Below are positions 799 through 52,108 of a stretch of 64,000 nt of DNA, piece after piece. The DNA is taken from contig NC_092673.1 of NCBI RefSeq assembly GCF_964355755.1, positions 18,411,648 to 18,475,647 on the forward strand, read 5' to 3'. This DNA is from Antedon mediterranea (Eukaryota; Animalia; Echinodermata). The notes beneath the pieces were generated by a model. The model was not told the origin of the DNA and did no database searches. It worked only from the letters and a program-made list of their open reading frames with translations. A program made the translations under genes and the position numbers. Each line of letters starts with the position of its first letter. The stretch's first letter is position 1.

Positions 799-920
799 CA
801 ACATTGCGAAAGAAAGATGGTGACACTCCATTACATGCATATTTGTATATGTATTCAGTACCTACCTTAGAAATAGTAACATGTCTCACACAGCGTGGTT
901 CAGTAACATGGAAAAATAAG
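799..920 (+). CDS. Divergent ankyrin-repeat exon (TLRKKDGDTPLHAYLYMYSVPTLEIVTCLTQRGSVTWKNK)
   Basis: GDTPLH motif; homologous to the array exons. The donor reads GC instead of GT (AATAAG/gcagtg), so it is either a GC-AG exon or decayed. Confidence 0.55.
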
Positions 921-3900
921 GCAGTGTACATGAATAATAACTTACATTAAGTAATAGGCTAAAGTAAGCCCATTAACAAAAATCAAATTTTATTAAAAGA
1001 AACCAAATTAAAATAATAACTAAACAGTTATATGATTTATGATAACTGATTTAAAGTATACAGTTATCCATCATATAACATTTATCTTTTTTCTTAATGA
1101 ACAAAAACAATCTACTTGTAATTTTTTATACTAGATGGTACGCTCGCTTCGCTCGCGTACCATCTAGTTCGTGCCCACAGATGGTTCTCGAATACATAGT
1201 AATTTCAGCGTAAAAAAAATGGCGATTTCAAATGTACGTACGGCAGGACTATAAAACATTGTCGTTTACAGAAACAAATAGACACAGTGATTTATGTAGT
1301 CAACCACAATTAGCACCTAGAAACTTGTCACAAAATGAGTTCAAATTTGTTATTTGGACTCATTTAAACAAACCCAATTTTGTATCTATTAGAGTTTAGG
1401 GTTTTGTATTATATCTAACATTAGAGTTGAGCGGTGGGGATGAGGATAGGTACAAAGAGGAAAAATGTTTTAATATATTCTTTATATTAAATTATTCTTT
1501 ATATTTCTTTATTATCCACTCAGTAACGAAATATTTTTTTATAGGCCCATAAATAATATGCCACTAAATAGAGTAAAACATTTCCGATTTAATGCTTTAT
1601 TAAAACTGTCACTGTCTCATGGTCGATTGAAATACTGTAGTAAAGTACCTTTAAAGACCACTAATACGTTTATATTTTAATTATTAATTAATACAAATGT
1701 TGAGAAACAACTGACAGTATTAAAGTATTATATTATTATGTGTTTATAATCTAAAAGTAGGGGCTACCCACACTCACAGTGATAAAGTTTATTAGTATAT
1801 TTGTTTAATATTATATCTAACAGTACCAACACACTTTTGATTCAAATGGCGATCAAACGTGGTTAATACCTATTTGCAGTATTGTATAGCATTACAATAC
1901 TATTTCTGTTTATTCTCCAAGGGTCTATAAATTGACCTACTTGTGTTAAACCATGGAGGTATGCAAGTATGGTTAAACCAAATAATTTGGAATGTTCCAT
2001 TCATCGCAAATCAATACATTTGTATAAACGTATATTAAATCTATCAAAATAGTATTTTTTAAAGAAAATCGGCCTGTCTTCAACATTATGATGCTGTACT
2101 CGAGCTGTTCAACCGGTTTTCAGCCATTAAAAACAATTATCGTAGGAGGAGATAGGAAAATGCGAAGCATCCTCGCATTATCGTCTGCGGGTATTTTTCA
2201 AGACGGACATCCATTAGACAGTGTATACCACGATCGAAAAACACCCCTATTTGGGGCAAATCGTTGAACCTAAATTCGTTTTAATCGTCAATAACTAATT
2301 ATCGAACTCAATTTAATTATTAAACAGGGTTACATCAGGTGGTTAAAATCAGTACCGAAAGTACGAACCAACTTTATATACCATCGAGTAAACATTCTAG
2401 AAATAACGCGCGATTTACCAAATTTTGCCCTTACGTAAATTTATATATAGATTCAGGTGAATCAGTATAATTTTGTTTAAATATTTTTGACCGTAAAACA
2501 AATATAAATTGCTCATATGTAGCTGTAAAGATAACAATGATTGACAATGGTCTAATTAATTGTAAAGATGAAATAAAATGGGACTACATTGATTAATAAT
2601 AAAATAACAAATAAAAAAGGTTTATGTTACAAAAAATTAATAGAATCTGATTTTATTAACAAATAATTATTAATTAATAACCTGCTCCCTCTCTTACCTT
2701 ACAAAAAAATGCTTTCCTTTCCAGGATGGTAACACTCCATTACATTCATATCTGAGGATTGAATATACACAACCTACCTTAGAAATAGTGACGTGTAATG
2801 ATAATTATGATTATTTACCACAATATTTAGCAGCAATTGTTGTTGTTTGTATTGAAAAAAAAAACAAACAATTTCACATAATGTCTGTTGTCAGTATTTA
2901 TAAACTTTATTGTGATTCCTTTCCAGTATGGTAACACTCCATTACATTACTATCTGAGACATGAAGACCCTACCTTAGAAATAGTGACGCGTCTCATTCA
3001 GCATGGGGCACCAGTAGCATTGCAAAATAAGGTAATGTACAGGGATTTGCTAGTGTAATAGGCTAACATTCTATAGATATGCTGTGGTAAACCATTCTAT
3101 TTTGTTCTACTCATTTATTAATAATGATAATTATGATTACTAGATGGTACGCTCGCTTCGCTCGCGTACCATCTAGGTCGTGCCCACAGATGGTTCTCGA
3201 ATACACAGTAATTTCAGCGTAAAAAAATGCTTTTTTTAATGTACGTACTGCAGGACGATAATAGTTATTATTGTTTACAGAAACGAATAAATAGACACGA
3301 TGATTTATGTATTAAACTGAAATTAGCACACTGGGAATTACTTCCGAAAGAGAAACTTGTCACAAAATGAGTCCAAATTTGTTATTTGGACTCATTTAAA
3401 CAAACCCAATTTGTGTTTTGTGTGTAACATTAGTTTTGAGGGATGGGGAAGAGGATATGGGTACAAAGAAGAACAATGTTTTAATATATTATTTATCTAC
3501 TCAGTAACGAAATATGTTTTTCACTTTGATAGGCCTATAAATAATATACCACTTGATACAGTAACACATTTGCGATTTAATACTTTGTTAAAACTGTCAC
3601 GGTCATAGTCCATTGAAATAGCATAGTACATGTAACGATACACGTACCACTACAACGTTTATATTCTTTGTAATTATTAATTAATACAAACGTTGAGAAG
3701 CAACTGTCAGTAGTACAGTTTATTTGTATATTGTACGTTTTATATAACAGTAGGGCCTACTCACAGGCCTATAAATAATATACCACTTGATACATTAACA
3801 CATTTGCGACTTAATACTTTGTTAAAACTGTCACTGTCATAGTCCATTGAAATAGCATAGTACATGTAACGATACACGTACCACTACAACGTTTATATTC

Positions 3901-6900
3901 TTTGTAATTATTAATTAATACAAACGTTGAGAAGCAACTGTCAGTACTACAGTTTATTTGTATATTGTACGTTTTATATAACAGTAGGGCCTACTCATAG
4001 GCCTATAAATAATATACCACTTGATACAGTAACACATTTGCGACTTAATACTTTGTTAAAACTGTCACTGTTATAGTCCATTGAAATAGCATAGTACATG
4101 TAACGATACACGTACCACTACAACGTTTATATTCTTTGTAATTATTAATTAATACAAACGCTGAGAAGCAACTGTCAGTACTACAGTTTATTTGTATATT
4201 GTACGTTCTATATAACAGTAGGGCACTCACAGTAATACGTTTATTTGTACATGATTGTGTTATACATCTAACAGTACCCACACTCACATTAAATTCAATG
4301 GCGACCACAAATGTTAATACGTATTTACAGTAATGTCCAAGTATTGCAATACTTATCTATATATAGGTTTTAGGTTAATTCCCCACGGGCCAATAAATTT
4401 ACCTACAGCTGGTGGTACTTGTGTTAAAGCAAAGAGTTATTATTGGAATGTTCCATTCATCGGAAATCAATACATTTGTATAAATGTATATTAAATCTAT
4501 CAAAATAGTATGTTTTTAAGAAAATAGGTCTGTCTTCAACATTATGATGCTGTACTCGAGCTGTTCAACCGGTTTTCATCCATTAAAAACAATTATCGTA
4601 GGAGGAGATAGGAAAATGCGAAGCATCCTCGTATTATTGTATGCGGGTATTTTTCAAGATAGACATGCATTGGACAGTGTATACCACGATCGGAAAACAC
4701 CCCTATTTGGGGCAAATCGTTGAACCTAAATTCGTTTTAATCGTCAATAACTAATTATCGAACTCCATTTAATTAGTAAACAGGGTTACATCAGGTGGTT
4801 AAAATCAGTATCGAAAGTACGAACCATCTTTATATACCATCGAGTAAACATTCTAGAAGTAAGGCGCGATTTACCGAATTTTGCCCTTACGTAAATTTAT
4901 ATATAGATTTACCACAATATTTAGTAGCAATTGTTGTTGTTTGTATTGAAAAAAAAACAAACAATTTCACATAATGTCTGTTGTCAGTATTTATAAACTT
5001 TATTATGATTCCTTTCCAGTATGGTGACACTCCATTACATTCATATCTGAAACATGAAGACCCTACCTTAGAAATAGTGACTTGTCTCATTCAGCATGGG
5101 GCACCAGTAGCATTGCAAAATAAGGTAAATGTACAGGGATTTGCTAGTGTAATAGGCTAACATTCTATAGATATGCTGTGGTAAACCATTCTATTTTGTT
5201 CTACTCATTTATTAATAATGATAATTATGATTATTTACCACAATATTTAGCAGCAATTGTTGTTGTTTGTATTGAAAAAAAAAACAAACAATTTCACATA
5301 ATGTCTGTTGTCAGTATTTATAAACTTTATTGTGATTCCTTTCCAGTATGGTGACACTCCATTACATTACTATCTGAGACATGAAGACCCTACCTTAGAA
5401 ATAGTGACGTGTCTCATTCAGCATGGGGCACCAGTAGCATTGCAAAATAAGGTAATGTACAGGGATTTGCTAGTGTAATAGGCTAACATTCTATAGATAT
5501 GCTGTGGTAAACCATTCTATTTTGTTCTACTCATTTATTAATAATGATAATTATGATTATTTACCACAATATTTAGCAGCAATTGTTGTTGTTTGTATTG
5601 ACAAAAAACAAACAATTTCACATAATGTCTGTTGTCAGTATTTATAAACTTCATTATGATTCCTTTCCAGGATGGTGACACTCCATTACATTCATATCTG
5701 TGGAGTGGATATACTGCACCTACCTTAGAAATAGTGACTTGTCTCATTCAGCATGAGGCACCAGTAGCATTGCAAAATAAGGTAAATGTACAGGGATTTG
5801 CTAGTGTAATAGGCTAACATTCTATAGATATGCTGTGGTAAACCATTCTATTTTGTTCTACTCATTTATTAATAATGATAATTATGATTATTTACCACAA
5901 TATTTAGCAGCAATTGTTGTTGTTTGTATTGAAAAAAAACAAACAATTTCACATAATGTCTGTTGTCAGTATTTATAAACTTCATTATGATTCCTTTCCA
6001 GGATGGTGACACTCTATTACATTCATATCTGTGGAGTGTACGTACACCTACCTTAGAAATAGTGACGTGTTTCATTCAGCATGGGGCACCAGTAGCATTG
6101 CAAAATAAGGTAAATGTACAGGGATTTGCTAGTGTAATAGGCTAACATTGTATAGATATGCTGTGGTAAACCATTCTATTTTGTTCTACTCATTTATTAA
6201 TAATGATAATTATGATTATTTACCACAATATTTAGTAGCAATTGTTGTTGTTTGTATTGAAAAAAAACAAACAATTTCACATAATGTCTGTTGTCAGTAT
6301 TTATAAACTTCATTATGATTCCTTTCCAGGATGGTGACACTCTATTACATTCATATCTGTGGAGTGTACGTACACCTACCTTAGAAATAGTGACGTGTCT
6401 CATTCAGCATGGGACACCAGTAGCATTGCAAAATAAGGTATTGTACAGGGATTTGCTAGTGTAATAGGCTAACATTCTATAGATATGCTGTGGTAAACCA
6501 TTCTATTTTGTTCTACTCATTTATTAATAATGATAATTATGATTATTTACCACAATATTTAGCAGCAATTGTTGTTGTTTGTATTGAAAAAAAAAACAAA
6601 CAATTTCACATAATGTCTGTTGTCAGTATTTATAAACTTTATTGTGATTCCTTTCCAGTATGGTAACACTCCATTACATTACTATCTGAGACATGAAGAC
6701 CCTACCTTAGAAATAGTGACGTGTCTCATTCAGCATGGGGCACCATTAGCATTGCAAAATAAGGTAAATGTACGGGGATTTGCTGGTGTAATAGGCTAAC
6801 ATTCTATAGATATGCTGTGGTAAACCATTCTATTTTGTTCTACTCATTTATTAATAATGATAATTATGATTATTTACCACAATATTTAGTAGCAATTGTT

Positions 6901-9900
6901 GTTGTTTGTATTGACAAAAAACAAACAATTTCACATAATGTCTGTTGTCAGTATTTATAAACTTTATTATGATTCCTTTCCAGAATGGTGACACTCCATT
7001 ACATTCATATCTGAGACATGAAGACCCTACCTTAGAAATAGTGACTTGTCTCATTCAGCATGGGGTACCAGTAGCATTGCAAAATAAGGTAAATGTACAG
7101 AGATTTGCTAGTGTAATAAGCTAACATTGTATAGATCTGATGAAGTGAACCATTCAGCAGTAATTGTTGTTGTTTGTATTTACCAAAAAAAAAAACAATT
7201 TCACATAATGTCTGTTGTCAGTATTTATAAACTTCAGTATGATTCCTTTCCAGGATGGTGACACTCCATTACATATATATCTGAGGAGTAGTTTTGTTTT
7301 GATTTAGATATTCATTTATAAGTCAACTATAATTGTAATGTGTTGTTGTTGTTTTAATATTTCATTTGTATCTGGAAGTATCCAAATATTATTTGCTTTG
7401 AAAGTTTATAGTAAAACTATTTGTTGTTTTATATTATGGCTCAAACATTTTACCTACTGTTCCAAAGTAAACTTTTATTCAATTTATCTCTCTCTCTCTC
7501 TCTCCTCTCTCCTCCATCTTTCAATGTTGAAGGCGGTAGACTATAAACAGCAGCACTCAAGTTTTGGTTTGGATACAGGAGTTATAGGTGGCGCACTGTA
7601 CAAATTGATGTAATTTATTAGCAAATAGTAATTTCTATTCACGTCCTAATTTACAACCAATGTAAAAAAATAGTAAATCTACGTGTTATCACGTGATGCT
7701 CTTTCATCCAATCTCTAGATGGTAAATGTTTGAGCCATGACATGATACTGTATGTATGTGATGCGTAATTAAAGTGTGTTATATTGTATATCAATAATTT
7801 CTCAAAAACTACTAATAACTAAACCCATTTTTTTAATAGGATGGAAATACACCTGTCTCTGTTTTAGAAAGTAACAGGCGGATAGGGGACCAGAGAAAAA
7901 CTGAAATTTTAAACTTCTTTAAAAGTAAGTGAAGTTTTAATTATTAAAATTTTGGAATCAACTAGTTTTCATTACAAACGATAAAGATTTGATTTCTTGT
8001 CCCAAATGAAGAAGAATGTCCAGATAAAGAAAATTAACATTTATGATATCATTCACAGGTTCAGATGACAATAGATTAAATAATCCACTGGGATTGTAGT
8101 AAACATGGAAGTTGTGATATGTTGCAAGATGTAAAAACCTTATTTTTTATGATTTGAACATTGCAAATAAATTAGAAAAATTATTTTGCCATTACGATAA
8201 AAATACACAAAAATGCAAACTTTAAAATTCCTTTGAATTAACAATATTGAATAAATTAGGCCACACTTTTTTTTTATGGAACGTCATTTTTCACATCGAA
8301 TCAATCTCTTTATTCATCAATACATCAAAACAATTATACATAAACAAAATAAAGATGTGAAGATGAAAGGGACCTCCAAGAAACCCAAAGGGGCTTGTGA
8401 TAAAAGGCCCACTATAAGCTAGTTACAAAAAAAACATACAAAAAATAAATTAATAAAATTAATAAAAATCCTGTATAGACAAATACACGGGATGCGCATT
8501 GTTAAGGAATATTTGAACTTTACTAATTGCATATAAATGTAATCTATTTTATATATAATGGTATTATTTAAAATATGTATTCGCAATCGAGGCAAACAAT
8601 TTACGATAGGAGGAGATAAATATTGAATTTAACAAGGCCATATAGATGACTGCAGTCGCTTGCTCAAGTTAGTGTTTACCAACCGACCGACATAGTGAGT
8701 TGTAGAGTGGCGTTGCACGTGACTAAAAATCTAATTTTCTTGTTAATCCCATTTTTTGTTTCGACAATGGACTCATTTTAAAGCCTGCTTTAGAATACTA
8801 TTTCTCTGTATGTAAAATTAAACATCATGCATAATGTATTTTACCTTCGCTCCTACAATTGTATTATCTTATACCAGGAGCGGATCTAGTCATTTTTATT
8901 TGAACTTTATTAATTGCATATAAATGTAAAATGTAGATTTTTTTTTAGATTGTCGATATGGGACAAACAATTTTTTTTTTCTAAACGCCCGGAGATAGCA
9001 GCGTTTTGGTCGGTCGATTCTTGTCATATAATTATCTAAATATATGTTGATACAAAGTTTGCGATACACCGTGTATATAAGTTTTAAAAAGGACTATTGA
9101 GTTTCTCGACGTTTCAATCAATATTCGTTGATCGTCCTCAGGAGAGAGAATGCAGAAAGTCCATGAAACTGGGAATATAAGTGGAATATGGTATATAAAT
9201 ATAGTTTGGTTTTAAAGCCTGTTTTCTTGTCGATGTAACGTTACAGCGAGTTTCGTTGATTTGAGTTGAGTTTTCAAATTGTTAAAGTTGAAAAAAATAA
9301 TAACGATGATCGATCCGGATTGGTAATATTTACATGATCGTTCATAGTTCTCTTGAGCGGTAAAGTGACACGCGGACGTAAAGTGTTGCAGAACCAAGAC
9401 CGGCCACGGCAGCTGTGGTCGCGTGAAAATTGAAAAAGTTATGGGTTTTGATGCTTCAATCCAGCCTAGGGCATGTTTTCGATTATTAATCTAGGCTTTA
9501 CACTAAAGAAACATTAAATTAAATTGTTTTTATATTATAATTATTTTGACTTACACTTAAACATTGTTGTGTTTTTAAAAATTCAAGAATTGTCAGCGCG
9601 TACATATTTTTTCACAAACTGTGATGACGTGATTTGTGAACTATTTGATTGGTCAGTTGAAGTTGAACTTGGTTCAATAATTAAAGATTTTAACGATTTT
9701 TAATGTTTTTACCTCATCTTCCTGTAAAATTGTTGTATGTAAATGGGTGGCGTGTCAATGACATTTAAAAGAATATACAACCCCCTAACCCCCCCCCCCC
9801 CCCCCCAATTTTCCCCTGTGTACAACTTCCCAAGCAAATAGTATAATGCAAAGCAATACATAATATTTGAGCAGTTAACTTATTGAAAAATTGAGCTCAA

Positions 9901-21900: not shown

Positions 21901-24900
21901 ACATTCTGAAGCAATTGAAGGGGAAACAGTTAAAGTATCGCTAGAAAATTTTTCTGAGGAAACAGGCATGCCTGTACTTCATTCTCATGAATCAATAATA
22001 TCACCTATTGTTAAATGTGGACCAGAAGGCACCAGCTTCAAAAAGCCCATTTTATTGTCATTTCCACACGATGCTGTAAATGAAGAGAATTGGAAATTCA
22101 CTCTACTTGTTAAAGATCGCATTCAAGATGAATGGAAACAAATAGCATTGACAAATGATAGAAAGGACGTTCATTTTACTTTAAACAACGGTCGATGTTA
22201 TGTAACTTTAAAACATTTCTGTTTTTATACACTAATGGGTCATCTAAGGAATTTGTTTGGTAAGAAAAAAATGTTGTTAGGAGTTTTTGGAAAGATGCTT
22301 TCAAATGATGATTATCAACTTCTAACAAGATTTTGTAAGCCATCAGATAAAAAGGTAATTGCTATAATTTGTTTTTAAACTGTATTTGAATAATGTACTA
22401 ATAAATTGGATAATTTAATACCTCAATAAATTCCTGCTATTTGATTGGATGATTGTGGGTCACATGGTGTGCAATAGTACATAAATAATCAATGTTTATA
22501 AGTGTAATGGTAGAAACAATGAGATGATTGATGAAAGGTTATGATTCAAAGCCGAGTTGAACATAACATTTCATTATTCACCAAATGCCATTATTTGTAC
22601 AATTACACGAATCTAAAACATGCATCTATATATTAATGCTACTAAATTAGTTTCATAATTTTACGTATCTCCCTCGAAAGCGCTGAATGGTATATGCTCA
22701 TATTTGACTGATGTTTCTTGATGAGATGCACACGATAGGCTATAACTCTTTCCTCAACTTGAAGCAAAAAGTAACAGTAATTTGAGAGCCATGTTTCATG
22801 AGTTGTTACATCACGTATCAACTATGCAACCTCCTCTGTTGTGTAACGTAATGGTTGGATCTACAAATACTATGCAGAGCCACCAAATTACAGTGTTTAG
22901 TCTCGACAGCCGGCCAACCGTATCAACTGATTGCGTTTAATTAATCACACTTATTCGTGGAACATAATAAATTTTGTAAATCATGGCTACCTTGGTGATT
23001 AAAACACTTTGGTCAATGATATTTTTAGTATATTCAAGTTTGAATTCATGAAATGTGTAAATAATAATTATCACCGCTTAATGGCAAAAATCGAAACTAG
23101 ACAGGCCTAATCCAACCCCCACCAAAATTCATCAGTGGCAGGAATTCGTTCACCTAAGTACCATTTTGAGAGAGATAGTGCTCTTAATATTAAAAAAAAC
23201 CTTAAGTAACTGTTCTATTAAACCTGATATTGCTCATTTAAAAAAATAAATGAAACCTTTACTACTTCAAATCAAGAGATTGGTGATTTGTTTAATAAGC
23301 CTTTTCAATCAGTTTTAATCCAGGAAAAATGTAACAACATCTCAAAACCAAGATTGAAAATATTAAATTTCAGTGTTCAATATCTCCAATCCTGAGGGCC
23401 CATTACACACAAGGTCACTTATATATTTACGAATTGACAACATTTTTTTATGCAAGAGTGATAAAACTCTGGAACAAACTTCCCTCAAATGGTTTCATGC
23501 ACTACGTTCCATATTTTTAAGAACACCTCTGCAAAGAGTGAAGTTACTGTTACTTTTCAGTTGATTAACATTACTGTACTTACAGTTAAAATTATTTTAA
23601 AAATTAAGGTATTGATAAATCATGTAATTGAATTGATCTGTTAATAATTATAAAATATGCTGTGAAGAAGTGATGATTGCCATGTACACTTCCCTCAAAT
23701 AATTAAGAGACAAAAAAAACTACAAATATATCTGTATATTACTACTATAAGTATATACATATTTCAGATGATTGAAGAAGACCACATAAAAATTGGTGAG
23801 CAGCCTTTAATAGTACCTGAAAATATACTTGTCATGTATAAGGACATGAAAATCACTGTAGCATTATCAAATCAGGAATGGAAAGTTCAGAAGGATGAAG
23901 AAGTAAGAATATTTTTTTTATAATTTTATAATTTTATGAATAATCATAATATTTTTAGTACTGAAAGTTGCCATGGTAAAGAATATGCATTAAATTTGCA
24001 GTAATACGACATAACTTGATCATTAATAACCAAAAATCCATTGCTATCCAATTAAGCATACTGGTCCATGATACTAAGTTCTTGGAATACAAAATTGTGA
24101 TTAGTTCTTTGGAGGATACACACACATTTTTTTAGATTTCTTATTGAGAGAAAAAATGAAAGCATTACCAGTATAAAAAAAATATTTAAAAAAATATATA
24201 TAAATAAATAGTATAATATTTATTCACCACAGCAATCAATTTAACTACAATGCCTTATAATATAATATAATAGTAATAATAATTTAATATAATATAATTT
24301 ATCTTAGCATGACTTCATTGTTTCCCTAGAATGTCAAGGCGGAAAACCTATGGCGTACAGGACCATCCAAGAAATTTCTTTTAAGAAGAAGTAATTCTTC
24401 AGCAAAAGTCCTAAAGGCAACAGTATTACTTTCACAAGAGTCAAATGATATTGATCCAGTGGAAGTGAATTGTAAGTATATAAAATGCTAACAGTAAGTC
24501 TAAATTTAGAAAGATGATTGTAATAAATAAAATGTAGTATTCAAATACGGTAATCAGACATTAACCATCCATGACAATAACCACCCATTATTGACTGTAC
24601 CATAGTTAGAATATGGGTTGGAAACAATGTAACGCCCGTATTCTTAAACCGGACTTTAGTCGTAGTTCGAAGTTCGACTTGAAAAAGTCGTAGTTCGAGC
24701 TATTACTTCAAATTCGATTCAAAAACGAAGTAGTCGAAGTTTGCAGTTCGACTTAATGAAGTCGAGCTTTTAGTCGAGTTGCACACGTCTGGGTAACAAA
24801 GGCTATACATTGGCCAATGACAAGAGAGTATTTGAGGAGCAGAAGAAATTTTGCGCATTGATATTACTTTCCATTTCTTACAACACTTTTTACGCATCAG

Positions 24901-27900
24901 GACTATATATATGAAAAATAATTTTAATCGTTAATTATTAGAACAAGATCAGTATTAATTTAACAGTGAAGTATATTTGATTAACAACAAATAAAATCTT
25001 CAAAATATATTTAGGAACCACGGCGGTACGGTAACTTTTATATTAGGCCCCCAACAAAGTATGATCGCGACGAACCACGCACTTCATAGCGTGACAAGAA
25101 AGCGCTAGGCCCCCTAAACATTCCATCGCGTGGTGAATTGCCGCATCTCCCATTGTCGCTATGGCGTGACGTAGCTCAAGTCGGACTTGCGTGAAGAAAA
25201 TAATGTAATTTGTATACAGTTCTAAATAAAGATGATTTTCATTATTATAACTTATACCAATGTATATTTAATTAAGCTAATATAAATATAGATATTTCAT
25301 TCTTCAATATCTGGCCAATATAACAACTCAATGACTGTTACGTTTTTTATAAACATCGTTTAAAAACCATTTAGTCGACCATTTAGCCTGCCCCCTTCAG
25401 GACTAAAAAAATCGATCAAAATCCGTCTCGATTTAGTCGAGGTTAGCCTGAATTAGTCGGCGATTTAGTTGAAGTTCGGTTTATGAATTAAAATGACGTC
25501 ATTTTTTTAGTTTTAGCTCGAACTACGACTAAAGTCCAGTTTAAGAATACGGGCGTAAGTGTTGGCTTGTTTTTTATCTAGCACTACAATACACTTTGGT
25601 TACATTGCTATAAATCCTAAAACACCTTAATTCTTCCTATATCAAACGGAATATTCTTATTCCGAATATCGGTTGGGTAGTTTTTTTTTCTCATTCTCTC
25701 AGATTTCCTCATTGAAATTTTTTTTTTTTATTATTTAATTTCCAGGATAATATCACTGGTCGAGTTTTTCTATACATATATATAAATCTGGTTTCTTTTT
25801 TTATTGAAATAATAATTATATATTTTATTTGTTATAGGTAATGTTGAGACATCAAGACCAAATCTAGGTATGTTATAATTTTAATTATGGTAATGATGTA
25901 GATTAAGTCTGTTTTCACCTTGACTAAAAGAACAGCATGAGCCAATACGTCTGAGGCAGATAATAGATGCAGCGGCTGCCATAATGGTCAGCCTCTGTGT
26001 TGATTTCAAATGCCTGATGGAACCCCAGCTTCATATATACAGCACTGATATTCCTAGATGGTCTCCCATCCAAGCTCCAACCAGGTCCAACATTGCTTAC
26101 CTTAACTGATCAGACAAGAAAACCAGTGTTTCAACATGACAAGGTCATATTATATGTAGTGAACAAACATTACCAGACTACAATTTTAGAATTTAATTAA
26201 TTACAATATAGGTTAAATTCCGGCCAATGTGAAAAGTTTTATGGTAAGTTCCGGCAAAGTTGCAGGCATCTATAACTACTAACTGCTAGCACGCCTATGA
26301 GAAAAGGACTTTTAAACCACGATACTTTATAGCAAATATATTTACTGTAATTTTTAGCTAATTTGTTTCATCTCATGCCAGTACAGGTGTTTCTTCTGGT
26401 ATTGGTGTGTCTTCTGGTACAGGTGTGTCTTCTGGTGCAGGTGTGTCTTCAGGTGCAGGTGTGTCTTCAGGTGCAGGTGTGTTTTCTGGTGCAGGCACAT
26501 CTTCTGGTGCAGGTGTGTCTTCCGGTGTAGGTGTGTCTTCAGGTGCAGGTGTGTCTTCTGGTGCAGGTGTGTCTTCAGGTGCAGGTGTGTCTTCAGGTGC
26601 AGGTGTGTCTTCCAGTACAGGTGTGTTGTCTGGTGCAGGTGCATGGAACCGAGGTATTAGGCAAGGTAATAATACTCTTTAGTAGTACTTAGAAAATATA
26701 TATAATAAATTTAGGTTTTTTTAATACAGATACAATGCAAAGTTTTCACCGGAAATGCCGTCTTGAATATGTGACCTACTATTCCCTCCTATTCTACTCA
26801 CAGACTAGAATCGTCATGGTCAATAAAAAAAATAACATCGTTGTATTGTCACGATATTATTGCTCTTACTGACCATGACGTCATTTGATTGCACGTGTGA
26901 AAGTATTATTTTCATCAAAGGCAGCATATATGGTTATCCTATAGTTCTAGTATTAAAACTTTTTAGATTTTCTTTGTTTTATGTATGAAAAATGCATATT
27001 TATTCATGTGTAAATCAGGCCCGTAGCCAGAATGCATCAGAGGGGGGGTTTTCTTGACCCCAATTATATTGCGAGCGCAGCAAGCCACTGTAGGCTGGGG
27101 GCCGGCAAGGGGGCCAGGGGCCTTGGAAGCTTTGGCTCTCAGAGCAATTTCGGTTGTTTTAATCAGCTTACAGAGACATCGGACACTATATTCGATCGAT
27201 TTAAACATAGTCAATAGAAGTAAAATGACCAAAAAATCTGCTATAATTGATAATTAATTGCACGATTTTGGAAGTGGGGCCTTTGTTTTTCAACAGTGGT
27301 GGCGCCAGCCTTATACTTAGGCGGGGGGCCTAAAATGTACGTTTCACTGTAGGCTCGCCTACTGTAGCCTACATTATTAAACAAAAACATGCCATTTTCG
27401 TTTAGCCAACATCTTATTATAGCTAAGTTATTACATTTCCAATGTCCTGTATGTCATGAACTCCTCATTGTACATCGAAAGTCCAGATGGTATGCACGCA
27501 TGTTATATAAATAAACTTATTTCCCCGACGGAAAAGGGTCTACGCTTGCGGACGCATTCCCCTCCAAATAAAAGGCAAAAAGAGCCAGTTTTTTAGGCCT
27601 AGGCCTGATATTTTTTAAGTATTTAAGTGTATTTTGAAGACCTGCAGCTCCAGTTTTCAAACTTTTCTTAGCTCAGCCCCAATTATAGAGCTGGTCATTC
27701 TTATTTCGAAGTACAATACAGTCAGTGCATTGTCTGGGGACCTAGAACTCTTTTAAAAAATTTTTTTATAACTCCGTCCCAACCATGGTAGTGCTGGTTC
27801 TGGAGACTTACCGGTATATATTTTGTATAATAAGTCCAATTTCCGGAACCTAGCAACTCTAGCTCCAACCCAACCATGGTTGGCTGGTCCTGTAGACCTA

Positions 27901-30900
27901 TAATTTCGTTTCTTATTTCAATGTTTTGCCGGAACCTAGCAGCTCTATTTTTCACAATTTCCTTATCTCCACCATCCATGGCGGGCTAGTCCTATAGACT
28001 TATAATTTTGTTTCACTTATCAATAGGGGCCTCTTTCCAGGGACCTGACAGTTTTATTTTTCACAATTTTCTTAGCAGCTCAACCCTAATGGTAGGGCTG
28101 GTCCATACTTATATATTTTGTTTCTTTTTTCGAAATACTATAATCCAATTTCCAGATTCCTAACAACTCTATTTTTCTAAATGTTCTTAGCTCCATCCCA
28201 ACCAAATCAAAATTGTTTAACCGATCAGCCCATGGGTGTTAGTTTCGCGCATTTACATTTTTCGCACCCCCAGACAGTCTCTGTCTCTGCGATTAACGAT
28301 ATACTTCTTGGCCCGTGGGTAGGTTTTGCGTTCGCGTATATTTTCTATTTAATAGGCATATTGAACTTCATTTTTAAAATTGAAAGAATGTATTTACACA
28401 GTCATCGCAACGGACTTCATGCAATGTGTTTTTCACACAGTATTTTATTTATGTACCATAAAAAATGGAACAAGTTGGATACCCTAAATCTTATTAAAAC
28501 GGCCTCAAATTACGCTATAACGCGTTGCTCCCGGGGGGCGGCCATTTTAATGTAACTATTCATATCTTGCTTTATTTTAAAATTTTACATAATTTAATTT
28601 AATTTAAATGAAAAATTGATTTAATTTCCATCATTGTTTATATACTATACAAGTTGATAATGTATTGATTATTTTATTAGGTGATCATTTTTAGGTGATC
28701 ATAGAATAAAATGATCACCTATTGTTATTGTACAAAATCTTTTATTTATTAAACTGATTATGTATAGGCAATGGTGGAAAGAAAGAGAATGAGATTACAT
28801 CATCAGGTCAACAATGTGAACCATCGTCAAGTCAACAATGTGAACCATCGTCAAGGCAACAACAGAAACCATCATCAAGTCAGCAACGGAGATCATCATC
28901 ATTTCAACAACGGACAATATTGTTCAGTCAAGAACAGAGACTATCATCAAGGAGTCAGCAATGTGAACGAAGTGAAGGTAAGTTACTCATAACATTTTAT
29001 AGAATGGGTAGGGAGAAAAACATAAGAAAGGGTAAAATGAAAGATTATAATAGGATTATTGTGATGATGATCGAAGATGATAATGACAAGGAAGTGATGG
29101 ATAATATGATAGATAGTATTTATTGTCATTTTAACAACATTAAAATATAATTAGGCATATGAAAACAATAACAAAATATATATCAGAAGAATGAGCAATC
29201 TGCGATTTTTGCTTTGGTAATTTGTATCACTAACAGCATGCCTGGATGCATGGATGTATACAGAAAGAAAACTTGATTTAAATAGATCATGTCACATTAA
29301 ATAGAATTATGATAATATAATTACTTTAAAATACATATTATTAATAGGCTACAATGTTAAATTTAATTAATATTTATATTTTCTACAAGAAACAACACCT
29401 AACTGTTCATGAACACGCGCCAACAACAACATGCCCGGTTGTTGATGCGAACTGTCTATTCGACAGTTTTTTACTAAATAAATTGCATAAAATGAACAAT
29501 TAAATATCCAAATAGCATGATATTGCCATGTAGTTTTATAACTTTTTTTACCATAAAACCTCTTCTGGTTGTCCGGGCTTACTGTAGATTAGTATGCAAA
29601 AGTCCCAACGTAAACGGCGCCCTACCGCATAGAAAACATTACTGTTGCAGGGAAAACTGTGGATTGCTCATTCTTCTGATATATATTCTTTGATACAATA
29701 CATAAGCGTCGTAACCAGTGATAGTCTAAGGAGATCTTACAAACTTGCTGTTAAATACATGAATTGAATTATAAACAAATGATTGTCGGCAGCTTGTCAT
29801 AAACACAAAAATATGTTGAGGAAGAATAAATTAATAGTGGGTTGTATTTGGACAACTGATTATAGATATAGACAATTTATACTGTAATCTTTGTTTAATC
29901 TGTCAATTTAATAATACATTATTATTTCTATGATTATTATAAATATACTACTGAATTTATTACATAATATACAAATAATGAATGTTTATGAGTGTAATGG
30001 TACAAATAATGGCACGAGGTGAATGATGAAAGGTTATATTTCAACGAGGCGATGAGCCGAGTTGAAATATAACCTTTCATCATTCACCAAGTGCCATTAT
30101 TTGTACCATTACACGAATACAAAACATTCATTATTTGTTTTATATAACATCTAAATAAATTCTAGTTATTTGAATCAAATAAAAGGTAGCCCTAGCCAAA
30201 GTTTACTACATTTCATTCACACACATTGATTAAAAACAGTAACATTTTGTTTTAAATAATTTTATATTAAATGTTATATTTATATGGATTTCGTAAACAC
30301 ACCTACTTTTGTGTTAATTATGTCAACAAACGACCAAACAATCCTAGGCCTAGCAAGGCTAAAACGCCTAGGCTAGGCCTAGCCTAATACTAGCATGGCC
30401 TAGGCTAGACCTAGTAGCCTAGTACTAGCTTGGCTGAAAGGCAAAACTTCGACAGACAATTGGAACTTATCTAAGCTAATTATGGTTTTTCCAACAATTC
30501 CACGTCCTGTAGGGATGTCCCCATTAATTAATCAAAATCCTAAAAACGATCTAAAGCTAATTTAAATGCCTTTTTGAATGAAATTAGTACATAATGTCCA
30601 AATCGTACACAAATATCTGCTGCTGTTGCATATCTCGCGGTGGTGTTTACAAATGAAACTCAGACCAGACGACAGGTGGCGCTGTTGTATTTCACAGTAC
30701 ATAGCCATATCATAGGATAATTTGTGTACTAGATTTTTTTTCATCCGCGAGACGTTTTTTTTTTCGTACACAAAAATGTTTCAAAAAGTACTATTTAACG
30801 ATCGTTGAATAGTGCGTACTATTGCACGCCATGTGACCCACATTCGTCCAATCAAATGACAGGAATTTATTTAGGTGTTATATAATATTTGATATTTGCT

Positions 30901-32720
30901 TCTCTTCAACTGTGTAGCTCTCTCGAAGGGTGACTTTAAACAGTTGATTGCAGACTTTGCAAAATGGTTTGATGACCATGGACTCCTCAACAGCCTAAAA
31001 GTTCTTTTCTTAGAATGGTTAGGTGTTGAAGTATTGAAAAGGGTTACAAGTACAAGAGAACTATTAGATCATTTAATCAATTCTGATCTATTGAATCAAC
31101 AACATCTTGCTGTCCTGTATGACACAATAAAAGTAACTGGACAATTTGACTTTCAGTCATCTGTCACAAAAAAGCTTTCTTCTTTCAAGAATATCAAAAA
31201 GTGTAAGGTAGTGTCACTACACACAGTCAATCTTTTTGATTGGGGAAAATCCCTCAGTGATCAGGATATAAAGGATCTTGACATACAATACAACTACCCT
31301 TTCCTTAAGAAGTATGCAGACGGTTGGAGTTTGACTTTGGATTTTGAAGCTCGAGGGTTGTTGGAAAGACAGAATCAAATCAGTTAAGAAAATAGACTTT
31401 TAGCTTTAACTTGCGATGTAATATGCTTGAACTCTTGGTTTAATTACCCACCATATTGTACAGTAGATAGCATCTGATGATCTTGTAGGTATGGAAGGCA
31501 ACAATCCACTGGCAAAAACCACTTTACAAATGTCTTCATGGCCTCTTTGAGATAGCCCTGTTAAATTGAATTTTGAATAATTTCAACTATATTATTACAG
31601 AACCCCTATTAAGGGGACACCTTTGCGACCCAAACAGTTGTTCCCTTAATAGGGGTTTTTGGGGAGAAGAATTGACAATTTAGCAGCCCACTTTTCACCA
31701 ATGAAAACTGTCCAGCCAGAGAAAGTATCATAATTTTTATCATAATCATTATGATATCCATTTTTTGATATACAGTAAATGAATAAGTTTGGTATTTTTT
31801 TTGTAATGGGGAAGAAAATTGTTGTTCCCTTAATAGTAATAAAAAAAACATTTTGCACTATCAAACATGTCCCTGTCCGCTTAGTATTTCATGAGAAAGT
31901 GTCCCCTAAACATATAATATTTCCCCTTGTTTCATGAGAAAGTGTCCTCTAAACATATAATATTTCTCCTTGTTTCATGAGAAAGTGTCCTCTAAACATA
32001 TAATATTTCCCCTTGTTTCATGAGAAAGTGTCCCCTTAATATGGCTGTGTCCCCTTAATAGGGGTGTGTTCCAAAGGAGGGGTTCTACTGTATAAAGATT
32101 TTATGTTATAATATTTCAGTGTAATAAACGGTACATGCTTCAATAGTATGCATAATAATAACATGTTTTTTTGTTTTTTTAAAATTAAAGTACTATCCAA
32201 GAGTAACTATCGAAAACTACTTGTGGAAGTGTCATCATGGTGGAAAGAACATAAGAAGATCAATTTACTGAAATTCATCCTTTTAATGTTCGAACAAGTT
32301 ACTCTAACCGACATAGAGAGAGAAGATGATCCAGTCAAACTCTTTGAGTTACTTGGAGCTCCTGGAATAATTAGCCCGTCAAATGTGGATGTTCTACTTG
32401 AAGCTGTTGTAATCGGAGGAATGGGGGGTGTGGACGAGGAAAAGATCAAGCAATTGATACCAAGCTTTCCTGGATTCAGTCAAATAAAAATTCCTGACTT
32501 CTGGGATAAGTGTCAAAAGTTGATCGGATTTGGACGTAAGATAGGTATTGATGAGCAAACCAACATTGGACATGTGTGTGGAGTGAAAAGTAAACCTAAT
32601 GATGTTTGGGCTTTGATGTTTGAACTTGAAAGGCAACGACTTTTCACTGAAGAAAGGACAAAATTCATTCAACTGCTAAAAGACATTGACCTGGATAGAC
32701 ATGCAGCATTATTAGAATAG
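799..32720 (+). CDS. Gene A (multi-exon, probably 5'-incomplete): ankyrin-repeat array - ZU5 - UPA - low-complexity linkers - tandem DED
   Basis: Phase-consistent GT-AG exon chain: ANK exons (phase 0-0) 2927-3031, 5020-5124, 5347-5451, 5671-5781, 6002-6109, 6330-6437, 6659-6763, 6984-7088; capping ANK 7840-7924 (0-1); 12473-12529 (1-1); ZU5 21825-22354 (1-0); 23768-23902 (0-0); 24330-24471 (0-1); 25838-25867, 26387-26665 and 28768-28977 (all 1-1); terminal DED exon 30918-31387 or 32191-32720 (both phase 1). No in-frame stops seen in the internal exons. Confidence 0.75.
1131..2451 (-). mobile_element. Non-autonomous Helitron
   Basis: On the minus strand it begins TC(TATATA) and ends CTAG, sits between A and T, and has a terminal hairpin CTAGATGGTACGC/GCGTACCATCTAG (1131-1167). 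A second copy lies at 3140-4907. Confidence 0.8.
2725..2796 (+). pseudogene. Truncated ankyrin exon (DGNTPLHSYLRIEYTQPTLEIVTC)
   Basis: Intact acceptor TTTCCAG. A deletion joins mid-exon ACGTGT to intron sequence AATGATAATTATG. Confidence 0.7.
2927..3031 (+). CDS. Ankyrin-repeat exon YGNTPLHYYLRHEDPTLEIVTRLIQHGAPVALQNK
   Basis: Bounded by ag and gt, 105 nt, phase 0-0, matches the ANK consensus. Confidence 0.8.
3140..4907 (-). mobile_element. Non-autonomous Helitron with an internal ~234-bp triplication, inserted in an array intron
   Basis: TC...CTAG termini on the minus strand and a terminal hairpin. The empty site TTATGATTA/TTTACCAC is visible in neighbouring array units, showing an A^T insertion without a TSD. 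Internal repeats start at ~3531, 3765 and 3999. Confidence 0.9.
5020..5124 (+). CDS. Ankyrin-repeat exon YGDTPLHSYLKHEDPTLEIVTCLIQHGAPVALQNK
   Basis: ag/gt, 105 nt, phase 0-0. Confidence 0.8.
5347..5451 (+). CDS. Ankyrin-repeat exon YGDTPLHYYLRHEDPTLEIVTCLIQHGAPVALQNK
   Basis: ag/gt, 105 nt, phase 0-0. Confidence 0.8.
5671..5781 (+). CDS. Ankyrin-repeat exon DGDTPLHSYLWSGYTAPTLEIVTCLIQHEAPVALQNK
   Basis: ag/gt, 111 nt, phase 0-0. Confidence 0.8.
6002..6109 (+). CDS. Ankyrin-repeat exon DGDTLLHSYLWSVRTPTLEIVTCFIQHGAPVALQNK
   Basis: ag/gt, 108 nt, phase 0-0. Confidence 0.8.
6330..6437 (+). CDS. Ankyrin-repeat exon DGDTLLHSYLWSVRTPTLEIVTCLIQHGTPVALQNK
   Basis: ag/gt, 108 nt, phase 0-0. Confidence 0.8.
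6659..6763 (+). CDS. Ankyrin-repeat exon YGNTPLHYYLRHEDPTLEIVTCLIQHGAPLALQNK
   Basis: ag/gt, 105 nt, phase 0-0. Confidence 0.8.
6984..7088 (+). CDS. Ankyrin-repeat exon NGDTPLHSYLRHEDPTLEIVTCLIQHGVPVALQNK
   Basis: ag/gt, 105 nt, phase 0-0. Confidence 0.8.
7254..7290 (+). pseudogene. Truncated ankyrin exon (DGDTPLHIYLRS)
   Basis: Intact acceptor; homology to the array unit stops after ~37 nt. Confidence 0.65.
7840..7924 (+). CDS. C-terminal capping ankyrin exon DGNTPVSVLESNRRIGDQRKTEILNFFK
   Basis: tag/GATGGAAATACACCT ... AAAA/gtaagt; GNTP motif; phase 0-1. Confidence 0.75.
8645..8730 (-). mobile_element. Short interspersed repeat end, Helentron/HINE-like; related copies at ~33917-34015 and ~42818-42895
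   Basis: TTTAGTC(A/G)CGTGCAACGC(C/G)ACTCT...CTCACTATGT followed by (GGTC/GGTT)n in three places. Confidence 0.5.
9100..9150 (-). ncRNA. Minimal type-I hammerhead-ribozyme-like motif (Penelope-associated type)
   Basis: Minus strand reads TCTC-CTGAGGA-C-GATCAA-CGAATA-TTGATT-GAAAC-GTC-GAGA: CUGANGA core, stem II, GAAA, GUC cleavage triplet and a short stem I. Confidence 0.5.
9932..11785. mobile_element. Two tandem copies (~9932-10605 and ~10610-11785) of a palindrome-bearing interspersed repeat; third copy at ~55330-56895
   Basis: Shared ACAGATATTGCCTGCTTAGAGG start, internal hairpin TATAAGATTTGACATCCCC...GGGGTTGTCAAATCTTATA, and CAACCAATCA...GTATTTACATA end. Confidence 0.75.
12473..12529 (+). 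CDS. Gene A linker exon (LTSPVSDQFEKLKVEKQN)
   Basis: tttttcag acceptor and G/gtgagt donor; 57 nt, phase 1-1; joins the ANK cap to ZU5 in frame. Confidence 0.65.
13291..20094. repeat. 69-bp minisatellite, about 98 copies (length divided by 69), derived from the LINE RT 'QG' motif
   Basis: Unit ACTGTAAATGGAATATATATGTTGTACAGGAGAGGGGACATAACCCCACCCTGTCTAACTCCATTAGAT; the minus strand translates as PFTVSNGVRQGGVMSPLLYNIYI. Confidence 0.97.
20571..21020. mobile_element. piggyBac-like MITE inserted in the LINE remnant
   Basis: TTAA on both sides; imperfect TIRs CCCTTTAAAGAC / GTCTTCAAATGG. Removing it restores the LINE frame AHIKYASKGLNILLSICFN. Confidence 0.8.
21825..22354 (+). CDS. Gene A ZU5 domain exon, running into UPA
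   Basis: ISPIVKCGPEGTSFKKPILLSFPH and VTLKHFCFYTL match the ZU5 signature of UNC5/PIDD/ankyrin proteins; tcag and AAG/gtaatt boundaries. Confidence 0.85.
23768..24471 (+). CDS. Gene A UPA-like exons 23768-23902 and 24330-24471
   Basis: In frame after ZU5 with canonical splice sites; beta-rich sequence (MKITVALSNQEWKV; ENLWRTGPSKKFLL; ATVLLSQ). The UPA call rests on position and pattern. Confidence 0.65.
24633..25555. mobile_element. PIF/Harbinger-like MITE
   Basis: ~38-bp TIR CGCCCGTATTCTTAAAC(C/T)GGACTTTAGTCGTAGTTCGA at both ends; 3-bp TAA target duplication. Confidence 0.85.
26036..26149 (-). pseudogene. 5S rRNA-derived sequence (pseudogene or head of a 5S-SINE)
   Basis: TACAGCAC..TATTCCTAGATGGTCTCCCATCCAAG..AACCAGG..TGCTTA..GATCAGAC is a diverged reverse complement of eukaryotic 5S rRNA. 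Confidence 0.8.
26387..26665 (+). CDS. Gene A linker exon made of an 18-bp coding minisatellite (GVSSGA)n
   Basis: cag acceptor and CAAG/gtaata donor; 279 nt, phase 1-1, open frame. Confidence 0.65.
28768..28977 (+). CDS. Gene A Ser/Gln-rich linker exon (24-bp repeats, SSSQQCEP)
   Basis: tag acceptor and GAAG/gtaagt donor; 210 nt, phase 1-1, open frame. Confidence 0.7.
29971..30885. mobile_element. Interspersed repeat with a long hairpin (29971-30138); copies at ~60852-61580, partial copies at ~22410-22630 and ~51735-51795
   Basis: Inverted repeat ACAAATAATGAATGTTT...GGTACAAATAATGGCAC...GTGCCATTATTTGTACC...CATTCATTATTTGT, (AGGCCT/AGCCT)-rich middle and CCAATCAAATGACAGG end shared between copies. 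Confidence 0.8.
30918..31387 (+). CDS. Tandem DED-like terminal exon 1 of gene A (second DED looks truncated)
   Basis: tag acceptor, phase 1; FKQLIADFAKWF...LKVLFLEWL...ELLDHLINSDLLNQQHLAVLYDTI follows the DED helix pattern; stop at 31385-31387. Confidence 0.65.
31598..32090. mobile_element. Tc1/mariner-pogo-like MITE with an internal 43-bp tandem repeat
   Basis: TA/CAG(TAG)AACCCC...GGGGTTCTACTG/TA termini; internal TTTCATGAGAAAGTGTCC units at 31887-32036. Confidence 0.65.
32191..32720 (+). CDS. Tandem DED-like terminal exon 2 of gene A
   Basis: aag acceptor, phase 1; YRKLLVEVS...LKFIL...LFELL..PGIISPSNVDVLLE and WALMFELERQRL...LLKDIDLDRHAALLE match DED patterns. Confidence 0.7.
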
Positions 32721-51420: not shown

Positions 51421-52108
51421 AAGGCTTGACCTGTAATCTGATTGGCAAACACTAGACTTTATTGTTTTCATAATCTAGCAATCATTATTATTCAGATCTA
51501 AAAAATTAACAATTCAGTTATCATATTAAAATAATATATTGTTATCAACTAAAAAAATAGCCACTGATCCCATAGTTTTACAACTCGTTTTGCAATGCAG
51601 ATCTGTTTATTTCTTGAAATGTTGTGTAGAATATCGGTTATATTTTGTTTTAAAAACCTAGTACTTTTGGATTATTGTACCTTACTTTCTTCCACCTTCT
51701 TAGACTGTACACAAGGCCGTGATTATGAAAATGAAATTATTTGTACCATTCCACGAATATAAAACATTCATTATTGGTTTTATATAACATCTAAGTAGAC
51801 ATGCATTTCATGTAAATTGTCATCTTAATAGGAGTGTCCACTGAGTAGGGGTTGGCCGTAGTGGTAAAACATATATTGCCTCTGTTGTGCAGGAAAGTGT
51901 CTGCTTACCAAAAGAGGGGCTCTGCTATTATACATTAAATGAATTCTTGCTGGATTAATTGCCATTTGAAGTCATTGCATTAATTGATTTAAACAAATTT
52001 TAATTTATAGATAATTATTTATCACAAAAGAAAACAGTTATTGATTTTTTATTTCTTAGCCTTATATGGCATGGTTGGTTTTTATATAATAAAATTATAT
52101 TTTATCAG

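Follow-up and report, generated by a model that had tools for sequence, protein, structure and literature searches.

The 64,000-nucleotide stretch of Antedon mediterranea DNA described here (the window; assembly GCF_964355755.1, contig NC_092673.1, positions 18,411,648 to 18,475,647) is about 30% G+C and has a eukaryotic exon-intron structure. Its first half carries, on the + strand, a chain of exons for a ZU5 domain, a UPA region, a flexible linker and a tandem death effector domain (tDED) at the C-terminus, together with an upstream array of ankyrin-repeat (ANK) exons that may or may not belong to the same gene. The named protein relatives, designated by P numbers below, all come from feather stars, either A. 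mediterranea or Anneissia japonica.

The ZU5 exon, which includes the start of the UPA region, lies at 21825-22354 (phase 1/0) and contains an in-frame ATG at 21833. It is followed by a UPA exon at 23768-23902 (phase 0/0), recognized by tblastn matches to the UPA parts of paralogs, and by the last UPA exon at 24330-24471 (phase 0/1, donor T/GTAAGT), which was aligned to those parts. An S/Q-rich linker exon at 28768-28977 (phase 1/1) then precedes two terminal exons with phase-1 acceptors, exon a at 30918-31387 (stop 31385-31387) and exon b at 32191-32720 (stop 32718-32720). The terminal exons are paralogous and both start with (A/V)LSK; because each carries its own stop, they are alternative ends and not serial units. 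Upstream of the ZU5 exon, a 57-nt linker exon at 12473-12529 (phase 1/1), whose extended open frame holds no ATG, is preceded by nine splice-competent ANK exons between 2927 and 7924. All of these exons are on the + strand.

Joining the chain by script gave an open frame of 826 or 846 codons plus stop, depending on the terminal exon, with no internal stop. A sequence-only reading of this DNA had proposed a phase-consistent exon chain running from the ANK repeats through ZU5, UPA and linkers to death effector domains (DEDs), and such a chain does exist: the exons, their phases and the open joined frame are real. Phase 1 was found at all module borders examined in the cluster; this also holds for the Roc exons (about 43.9 and 52.1 kb), the final exons of COR and the exon at 63551. 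Since phase-1 borders are a family-wide property, the phase agreement is weak evidence for any single join.

The ZU5 assignment is firm. Pfam PF00791 matches the exon with E = 7.5e-17 (61.8 bits against a cut-off of 21), and the exon is 59-77% identical to eight Antedon paralogs, the best identity in the protein collection being at most 77%. A profile built from the window exon and three paralogs matches the solved ZU5-UPA structure of UNC5B (3g5b) over chain positions 13-274, which comprise ZU5 and most of UPA, with E = 7.1e-18; the paralog P0002 alone matches it over both ZU5 and UPA (E = 3.8e-15). The Pfam UPA model was sub-threshold and appeared only in paralog P0005 (23.1 versus 27 bits). 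By tblastn with the eight ZU5 paralogs, a single ZU5 exon was found in the window, where ankyrins and PIDD1 have two.

Within this exon, the codons for H-F-C at 22214-22222 (+ strand) align to the position of the CARD8 and PIDD cleavage site, with the predicted autoproteolytic cut between F and C. The window H-F-C (N-H-F-S in the family) aligns to Q136-L137-G138 of the 405-residue UNC5B chain; because chain residues Cys123 and Cys130 are the disulphide Cys-663/Cys-670, L137 corresponds to Leu-677. In passages of the work of D'Osualdo et al. (PMC3210808), that disulphide is named for UNC5b, Leu-677 is said to correspond to CARD8 Phe-296, which directly precedes the scissile bond, and such cleavages are described as beginning with attack by Ser, Thr or Cys. 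The triplets in the 10 complete ZU5 copies, i.e. the window and nine copies in eight paralogs, are HFC (4), HFS (4), HFT (1) and SFT (1), so that the third residue varies only among the nucleophiles S, T and C in all 10. As the motif stands at the CARD8/PIDD cleavage position and is kept in every complete copy, self-cleavage between F and C (22217-22222) is likely, and it would yield an N-terminal piece ending in ZU5 and a UPA-linker-tDED piece. A truncated ZU5 fragment at the start of P0003, with I-F-N at the motif position, counts against this prediction. In CARD8, cleavage additionally depends on a His and a Glu.

The identity of the C-terminus was evaluated with structural models. The AlphaFold2 model of exon a, made from an 11-row alignment, has a predicted local distance difference test score (pLDDT) of 88.9 and a predicted template-modeling score (pTM) of 0.84. 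Its Foldseek matches listed to rank 50 are all DED proteins; through rank 49 they are tandem DEDs, from caspase-8, cFLIP and viral FLIPs, and a FADD DED comes next. VIA-align superimposes it on residues 2-159/162 of the caspase-8 tDED with Z = 14.3 and a root-mean-square deviation of 2.9 Å over 146 residues; DED proteins make up 34 of the 37 listed rows, and the next row has Z = 4.7. The model of exon b (29-row alignment) reaches pLDDT 94.0 and pTM 0.89, and its VIA comparison gives Z = 15.1 over 161-162 residues to residues 1-176 of the caspase-8 tDED. Against death-domain (DD) and CARD chains, exon b scores Z ≤ 6.5, with 5.0 for the NLRP1 CARD, and by this comparison the C-terminus is neither a DD nor a CARD. 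The nearest ESM Atlas clusters of exon b are also DED, which serves as a lead only. According to these models, each terminal exon encodes a whole tandem DED of the caspase-8 type.

Sequence comparison with DED models is less telling, and the structure predictions decide the matter. The Pfam DED scores of the terminal exons, 24.9 and 22.4 bits, lie below the cut-off of 35.9, and phmmer of both tDED exons against PDB sequences gave no match at E ≤ 10. Exon a is shortened by a 1-nt frameshift relative to its paralogs and has lost the last helix, which the +1 frame near its end still resembles. The frameshift is not an assembly error, because contigs from DNA runs match the window over 31110-31575 with no differences. 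No caspase or pseudo-caspase domain follows the tDED, as both exons end in a stop. Thus the sequence-only proposal that DEDs replace the death domain after ZU5-UPA agrees with the structure matches to caspase-8-type tDEDs, and its expectation that the C-terminal exons would model as death folds is borne out with confidence in both. Its tandem arrangement, by contrast, must be revised: the DED fold is confirmed by the models, but the two exons do not form the pair in series, each being a full tDED and an alternative end.

Two other arrangements of the terminal exons were considered and set aside. Splicing of exon a to exon b, which would give tDED-tDED, would have to use a phase-1 GT before the exon a stop (A/GTTAAG), a poor donor whose use is unsupported. 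The idea that the second half of the module is a TRADD-N domain, a lead taken from a passage of PMC8195603, is at odds with the two models, both of which are all-helical tandem DEDs. As a separate observation, a 1296-nt contig of sequencing run X1 (depth 124) is about 96% identical to exon b and the following DNA, over 32389-33200 and beyond, with 32 differences and 5 gaps; the likeliest explanation is a close paralog of exon b that is expressed, or a divergent allele, in either case with a long 3' untranslated region (UTR). DED filaments are held by contacts that include an E/D-RxDL charge triad and a hydrophobic FL patch. An RxDL motif is not obvious by eye in the tDED alignment (A1).

That the ZU5, UPA, linker and tDED exons form one gene is indicated by annotated paralogs and by one spliced contig. 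The RefSeq model P0001 reads ZU5-UPA-ZU5-UPA-linker-tDED, and P0008 also carries ZU5-UPA followed by a tDED. At the linker/tDED junction, the predicted window peptide CERSE(A)LSKGDF compares with CEQSEALSNGDF in P0012. One spliced X1 contig with a depth of 4.1 joins 23902 to 24330 and confirms one intron. No run is on record as RNA, and X1 is taken as RNA-like from this spliced contig and from some empty intron bins; the ZU5 exon is covered incompletely by the runs found, which were available as Logan contigs, not raw reads. Among the X1 joints listed, in tables crowded by repeats, there is no RNA junction for 24471 to 28768 or for 28977 to 30918 or 32191, which limits the case for a single gene. 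The gene models of the relatives are automatic, some being partial (P0010 begins with the intron-derived MIPFQ) and some possibly chimeric. With these points on both sides, homology still says that ZU5-UPA-linker-tDED is probably one gene.

An open reading frame at 26362-26682 (GVSSGA...), made of an 18-bp repeat, was considered as an extra linker exon. Since AG and GT dinucleotides recur with every repeat unit and none of the paralog linkers looks similar, the frame was treated as intronic. The microsatellite behind it spans 26384-26641 (14.3 copies of 18 bp) in the intron between the UPA and S/Q-rich exons; several of its frames are open, reading GVSSGA (+ strand) and PAPEDT (- strand).

A profile of the tDED module (A1) finds 242 representative proteins at E ≤ 0.001, 129 of them at E ≤ 1e-30. 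The best 150 of the 242 were scanned with Pfam at E ≤ 1e-6 (146 new and 4 scanned earlier). Among the 146 new representatives, the tDED is partnered by NACHT in 23, by Roc and/or COR in 15, by TIR in 5, by a caspase domain in 2, by ANK in 2 and by ZU5 in none; a RIG-I-like helicase, a Rel-homology domain, a protein kinase, UCH, ubiquitin and a fibrinogen domain were each found once. In annotated relatives the module is joined to NACHT-LRR NLRs, one with five tDED copies, and to a MAP3K-like kinase. The Pfam DED cut-off is reached by 28 of the 146. All 10 sampled representatives are crinoid (7 Anneissia japonica, 3 Antedon mediterranea), and they include proteins named caspase-8-like, CASP8-and-FADD-like regulator and DDX58-like. 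The profile also retrieves the Anneissia caspase-8-like P0032 (E = 4e-65) and the cFLIP-like P0145 (E = 3.9e-30). By sequence, the window tDED is kin of the crinoid caspase-8-like prodomain, and homotypic recruitment of that caspase is therefore its natural predicted output. The range of partners suggests that the tDED is a general innate-immune adaptor of crinoids.

Upstream, a six-frame motif scan recovered 12 ANK-like units between 819 and 7843, all on the + strand. Eight of them are intact exons of 105-111 nt with AG/GT borders and phase 0/0, each encoding one repeat: the exon at 2927-3031 (35 residues, AG..GTAATG, Pfam Ank 30.6 bits) and the seven of a tandem array at 5020-7088 (5020-5124, 5347-5451, 5671-5781, 6002-6109, 6330-6437, 6659-6763 and 6984-7088). 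The array consists of 327-bp units, reported by Tandem Repeats Finder as a period of 327 with 6.9 copies. Taken singly, six of the eight intact exons pass the Pfam Ank gathering cut-off of 21.1 bits (22.3-30.6 bits), five of these being among the seven of the array, and the remaining two score 14.7-14.8 bits. The last, capping ANK exon at 7840-7924 has a phase-1 consensus donor (A/GTAAGT), and reading through this donor meets a stop (TGA, 7930-7932) two codons on. The other units are a degenerate one at 816-920, which has no AG acceptor and no GT donor (Pfam Ank 15.2 bits, below the cut-off), a truncated exon copy at 2725-2794 that continues into intron-like sequence, and a truncated unit at 7254-7304 with a stop after 17 codons. 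The paralogs have an N-terminal ANK cap exon (MERKHL...) for which no counterpart was found within the window, so the 5' end of the ANK part is either missing or upstream of base 1.

Within the array at 5020-7088, the introns are 98.4% identical pairwise (minimum 97.3%), and the exons less so, at 91.1% (minimum 85.7%). The exon differences, with proportions of 0.089 for synonymous (pS) and 0.101 for nonsynonymous (pN) changes, are concentrated at codons 8-16 (SYLKHEDP, SYLWSGYTAP, SYLWSVRTP). The array looks like a case of intron homogenization in which the exon types are kept distinct. The 2-kb gap between the exons at 2927-3031 and 5020-5124 holds a 234-bp tandem repeat at 3531-4232 (3 copies, 97% identity).

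Taken together, our preferred reading, to which we give an even chance, is a ZU5-UPA-linker-tDED gene that is predicted to gain an ANK N-terminus through the linker exon, whose product likely cleaves itself between H-F and C and would seed caspase-8-type DED filaments through its UPA-tDED piece. The folded protein would likely be cut at this site, its two pieces remaining associated like those of CARD8 and PIDD. UPA-tDED would then be freed by a signal to the N-terminal piece, which would carry the ANK array with its variation mainly at codons 8-16 if the fusion holds. UPA would promote polymerization of the tDED, as for the CARDs of NLRP1 and CARD8, where PMC11874512 describes UPA as promoting CARD filament formation. 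The tDED filament would finally recruit and activate a caspase-8-like enzyme. We infer the choice of terminal exon, the UPA-assisted tDED polymerization, the caspase recruitment and an immune or cell-death role.

The junction between the ANK array and ZU5 is a prediction, for which homology backs the ANK-to-linker and the linker-to-ZU5 steps separately. In P0010, a homologous last ANK exon (residues 76-103), to which the window capping exon is 75% identical over 28 residues, is spliced to a linker, DLPSTVDEQF..., that is a homolog of the window linker (N)LTSPVSDQF...; in P0006, a homologous linker type, with 62.5% identity to the window linker exon over 24 residues, stands directly before ZU5. 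The ANK donor (GTAAGT) and the splice sites of the linker exon are strong. Because the open frame of the linker exon has no ATG, the exon, if coding, must be preceded by a coding exon with a phase-1 donor, and within the window no candidate other than the last ANK exon was seen. Downstream of the linker, the first phase-1 acceptor belongs to the ZU5 exon, and the Roc exons lie 31 kb further. The odds that the ANK array forms the N-terminus of the ZU5-UPA-tDED gene via 12473-12529 are about even. The sequence-only reading is thus partly supported: each half-join has a homologous counterpart, and the ANK exons are predicted to be part of the same protein. Among the relatives examined, ZU5-UPA-tDED is present in Antedon models and ANK is joined to ZU5 in none.

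The competing possibility is that these are separate genes, which we consider somewhat short of evenly probable. The ANK part would then end after 7840-7924, and would be either an ANK-only product whose 3' UTR reaches about 8.6 kb or the 5' portion of a Roc-COR gene; ATG 21833 would start an independent ZU5-UPA-tDED gene, and the linker exon would serve as a 5' UTR exon, survive as a relic or belong to the ANK/Roc transcript. A number of results favor separation over fusion. X1 contigs (7895-8049, 8020-8132, 8106-8522 and 8534-8628) pass the ANK donor from 7895 to 8628 at depths of 20.6-25.9, and the upstream intron bin 7324-7535 has depth 0. The stretch 7925-8628 (+ strand), with its many AATAAA signals, is an alternative 3' end or a retained intron, and by this RNA-like read-through and the stop just after the donor, an ANK-only end exists or is at least possible; Antedon does have ANK-only models (P0009, P0011). 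Annotated relatives join ANK of the window's type to Roc(-COR) (P0010, P0067, P0060), and the window contains, further downstream, two Roc-COR units that lack 5' exons of their own. ANK and ZU5 are combined in none of the eight ZU5 relatives, none of the three ANK relatives and none of the 150 tDED representatives, of which the 146 new ones contain no ZU5 at E ≤ 1e-6. The ATG at 21833 stands at the Met position of P0005 and P0006, which allows a separate start. Lastly, no RNA junction for 7924 to 12473 or 12529 to 21825 is among the X1 joints listed in the repeat-crowded tables; X1 has no cover on the linker-exon bin 12412-12623, which was used neither for nor against the join. Separation nevertheless leaves several features of the locus to be explained. 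The consensus phase-1 donor of the last ANK exon is preserved, and the corresponding donor is used in its paralog; an intact, conserved linker exon of phase 1/1 without an ATG sits between the ANK array and ZU5, its nearest downstream phase-1 acceptor being that of ZU5. The depth of the last ANK exon, as estimated from depth bins, appears several-fold above that of the read-through, although paralogs could also cause this. The first read-through contig starts exactly 30 nt before the donor at 7924, one letter short of the rule for a bridging record; such a start would fit a k = 31 graph branch at an exon edge, and here too paralogs could be the cause.

The cleavage and the functionality of the gene have their own competitors. 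A non-cleaving scaffold, resembling the closed ZU5-UPA-DD supramodule of UNC5B or ankyrin, would hold the tDED against ZU5 and release it upon ligand binding or a change of shape. This possibility draws on the facts that the nearest solved relative by sequence, UNC5B (E = 7.1e-18), has Q-L-G in place of the motif, and that the Pfam ZU5 model matches with no FIIND match listed. We regard it as rather unlikely, because [H/S]-F-[S/T/C] occurs in 10 of 10 complete copies with a nucleophile always in third position, a pattern that is hard to explain by structure alone. We find it still more improbable, to the point of being distinctly unlikely, that the locus is a duplicate in decay within a gene cluster of rapid turnover, with low-level transcription and no working protein. 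Such decay would account for the frameshift that truncates exon a, the three degenerate ANK units, the 6.8-kb satellite and transposon-rich introns, the depth of just 4.1 for the spliced contig, and the lack of any protein more than 77% identical to the ZU5 exon in the protein collection. It does not readily account for core exons that are all open with intact splice sites, for a complete exon b modeled at pLDDT 94, for correct splicing seen once, or for an exon a that is short of only about one helix in either frame.

Among known proteins, PIDD1 has the order LRR-ZU5-ZU5-UPA-DD, ankyrins have ANK24-ZU5-ZU5-UPA-DD, and UNC5B and UNC5CL have ZU5-UPA-DD. The window gene resembles CARD8 and NLRP1 in its ZU5, UPA, flexible linker and C-terminal death fold of a filament-forming type, and it shares with CARD8 an [S/H]-F-nucleophile at the equivalent position, the window F corresponding to UNC5b Leu-677 and CARD8 Phe-296. 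Unlike CARD8 and NLRP1, it ends in a tDED and not a CARD, its ZU5 is of the UNC5 type with no FIIND match listed, its nucleophile is Cys, and its cleavage is predicted from the motif. With PIDD1 it shares an HF/S-type site after ZU5, UPA followed by a death fold and, if the ANK join holds, an upstream repeat array; it differs in having one ZU5 in place of two, ANK in place of LRR and a tDED in place of a DD. Because the tDED replaces the DD, the expected partner would be caspase-8-like and not RAIDD/caspase-2 as for PIDD1. The order ANK...ZU5-UPA-death fold is that of ankyrins and, from ZU5 on, of UNC5, and UNC5B is the closest solved relative by sequence. In contrast to ankyrins, the window has a short lineage-specific ANK array in which each exon holds one repeat, and its ZU5 is single and its end a tDED; in contrast to UNC5B, which has Q-L-G, it carries the cleavage motif. 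The window gene is thus not a member of the CARD8, NLRP1 or PIDD1 families, since it has no CARD or DD, one ZU5, and that of UNC5 type. The terminal exons are like caspase-8, cFLIP and viral FLIPs in forming two rigidly packed DEDs (Z 14.3 and 15.1), but unlike the N-terminal prodomain of caspase-8 and cFLIP, the window tDED is a C-terminal end piece, and its identity to human caspase-8 is 12-16%.

The closest architectures are found in crinoids. The uncharacterized Antedon RefSeq models P0001, P0008, P0004 and P0007, which belong to a tandem cluster, each have the same ZU5-UPA (59-64% identity) and the same tDED in one model. P0001 has the order of the window with two ZU5-UPA units, P0004 adds Roc-COR, and P0007 has its tDED at the N-terminus; none of them has ANK. 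The crinoid P0067, ANK(9)-Roc-COR-linker-tDED, shares the ANK type, the capping repeat and the C-terminal tDED with the window, but its core is Roc-COR and not ZU5-UPA. P0010 and P0060 are partial ANK-Roc models, and P0010 uses a homolog of the window linker exon after ANK. In a full-text literature search, no paper was found that describes ZU5-UPA with a tandem DED or a crinoid DED family. A passage of Kaur et al. (2021; PMC8195603) reports lineage-specific marine-invertebrate DED+TRADD-N proteins fused to "the UPA-Zu5 module", and the source data of that paper may list related architectures. The earlier statement that no characterized protein is known with this arrangement holds for the literature searched; P0001, P0004, P0007 and P0008 are already annotated as uncharacterized ZU5-UPA and tDED models.

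The remainder of the window contains related modules and repeats. A 69-bp satellite at 13291-20100 (98.5 copies, 97% identity) fills 6.8 kb of the putative linker-to-ZU5 intron. Its - strand frame contains a reverse-transcriptase-like motif (..SNGVRQGGVMSPLLYNIYI..), which suggests that the repeat arose by expansion of a piece of retrotransposon. Further along, past the tDED exons and ahead of the Roc units, two long open frames (502 and 211 residues) at 36215-38531 (+ strand) look like a non-LTR (long terminal repeat) retrotransposon with endonuclease- and reverse-transcriptase-like parts. Two tandem Roc-COR units, homologous to P0004, P0010 and P0014, follow at 43885-51075 and 52108-60744 (+ strand). 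Their first exons lack an ATG and have phase-1 acceptors, and at the other end the final COR exons close with phase-1 donors (LFG G/GTAA..). Upstream of the units, no 5' exon belonging to them, ANK or otherwise, was found in the window. The exon at 63551-64000 (+ strand), with a phase-1 acceptor, belongs to a second DED-like module type ("module B") and continues past the window end; it is 88% identical to residues 152-300 of P0012, and its Pfam DED score of 22.1 bits is below the cut-off.

The uniform phase-1 module borders show how combinations in this cluster can be shuffled with reading frames kept. A bolder proposal, which we consider unlikely, is that one ANK array is spliced to alternative phase-1 cassettes, either ZU5/UPA-tDED or Roc-COR-tDED, the former being a DED counterpart of CARD8 and NLRP1 that is constitutively self-cleaved and triggered by loss of its N-terminal piece, with UPA-tDED directly nucleating caspase-8 filaments. 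If true, it would represent a "DED inflammasome/apoptosome" of a kind that model animals are not known to have. More generally, UPA is known to be linked to a DD in PIDD1, UNC5 and ankyrin and to a CARD in NLRP1 and CARD8, and a UPA-tDED with a conserved self-cleavage motif would add the missing DED version. Such a protein would connect a ZU5-type sensor directly to enzymes of the caspase-8 type, with neither FADD nor ASC in between. From the many domains joined to the tDED module, crinoids seem to have based a large part of their innate-immune signaling on tDEDs, in places where CARD and PYD serve in vertebrates.

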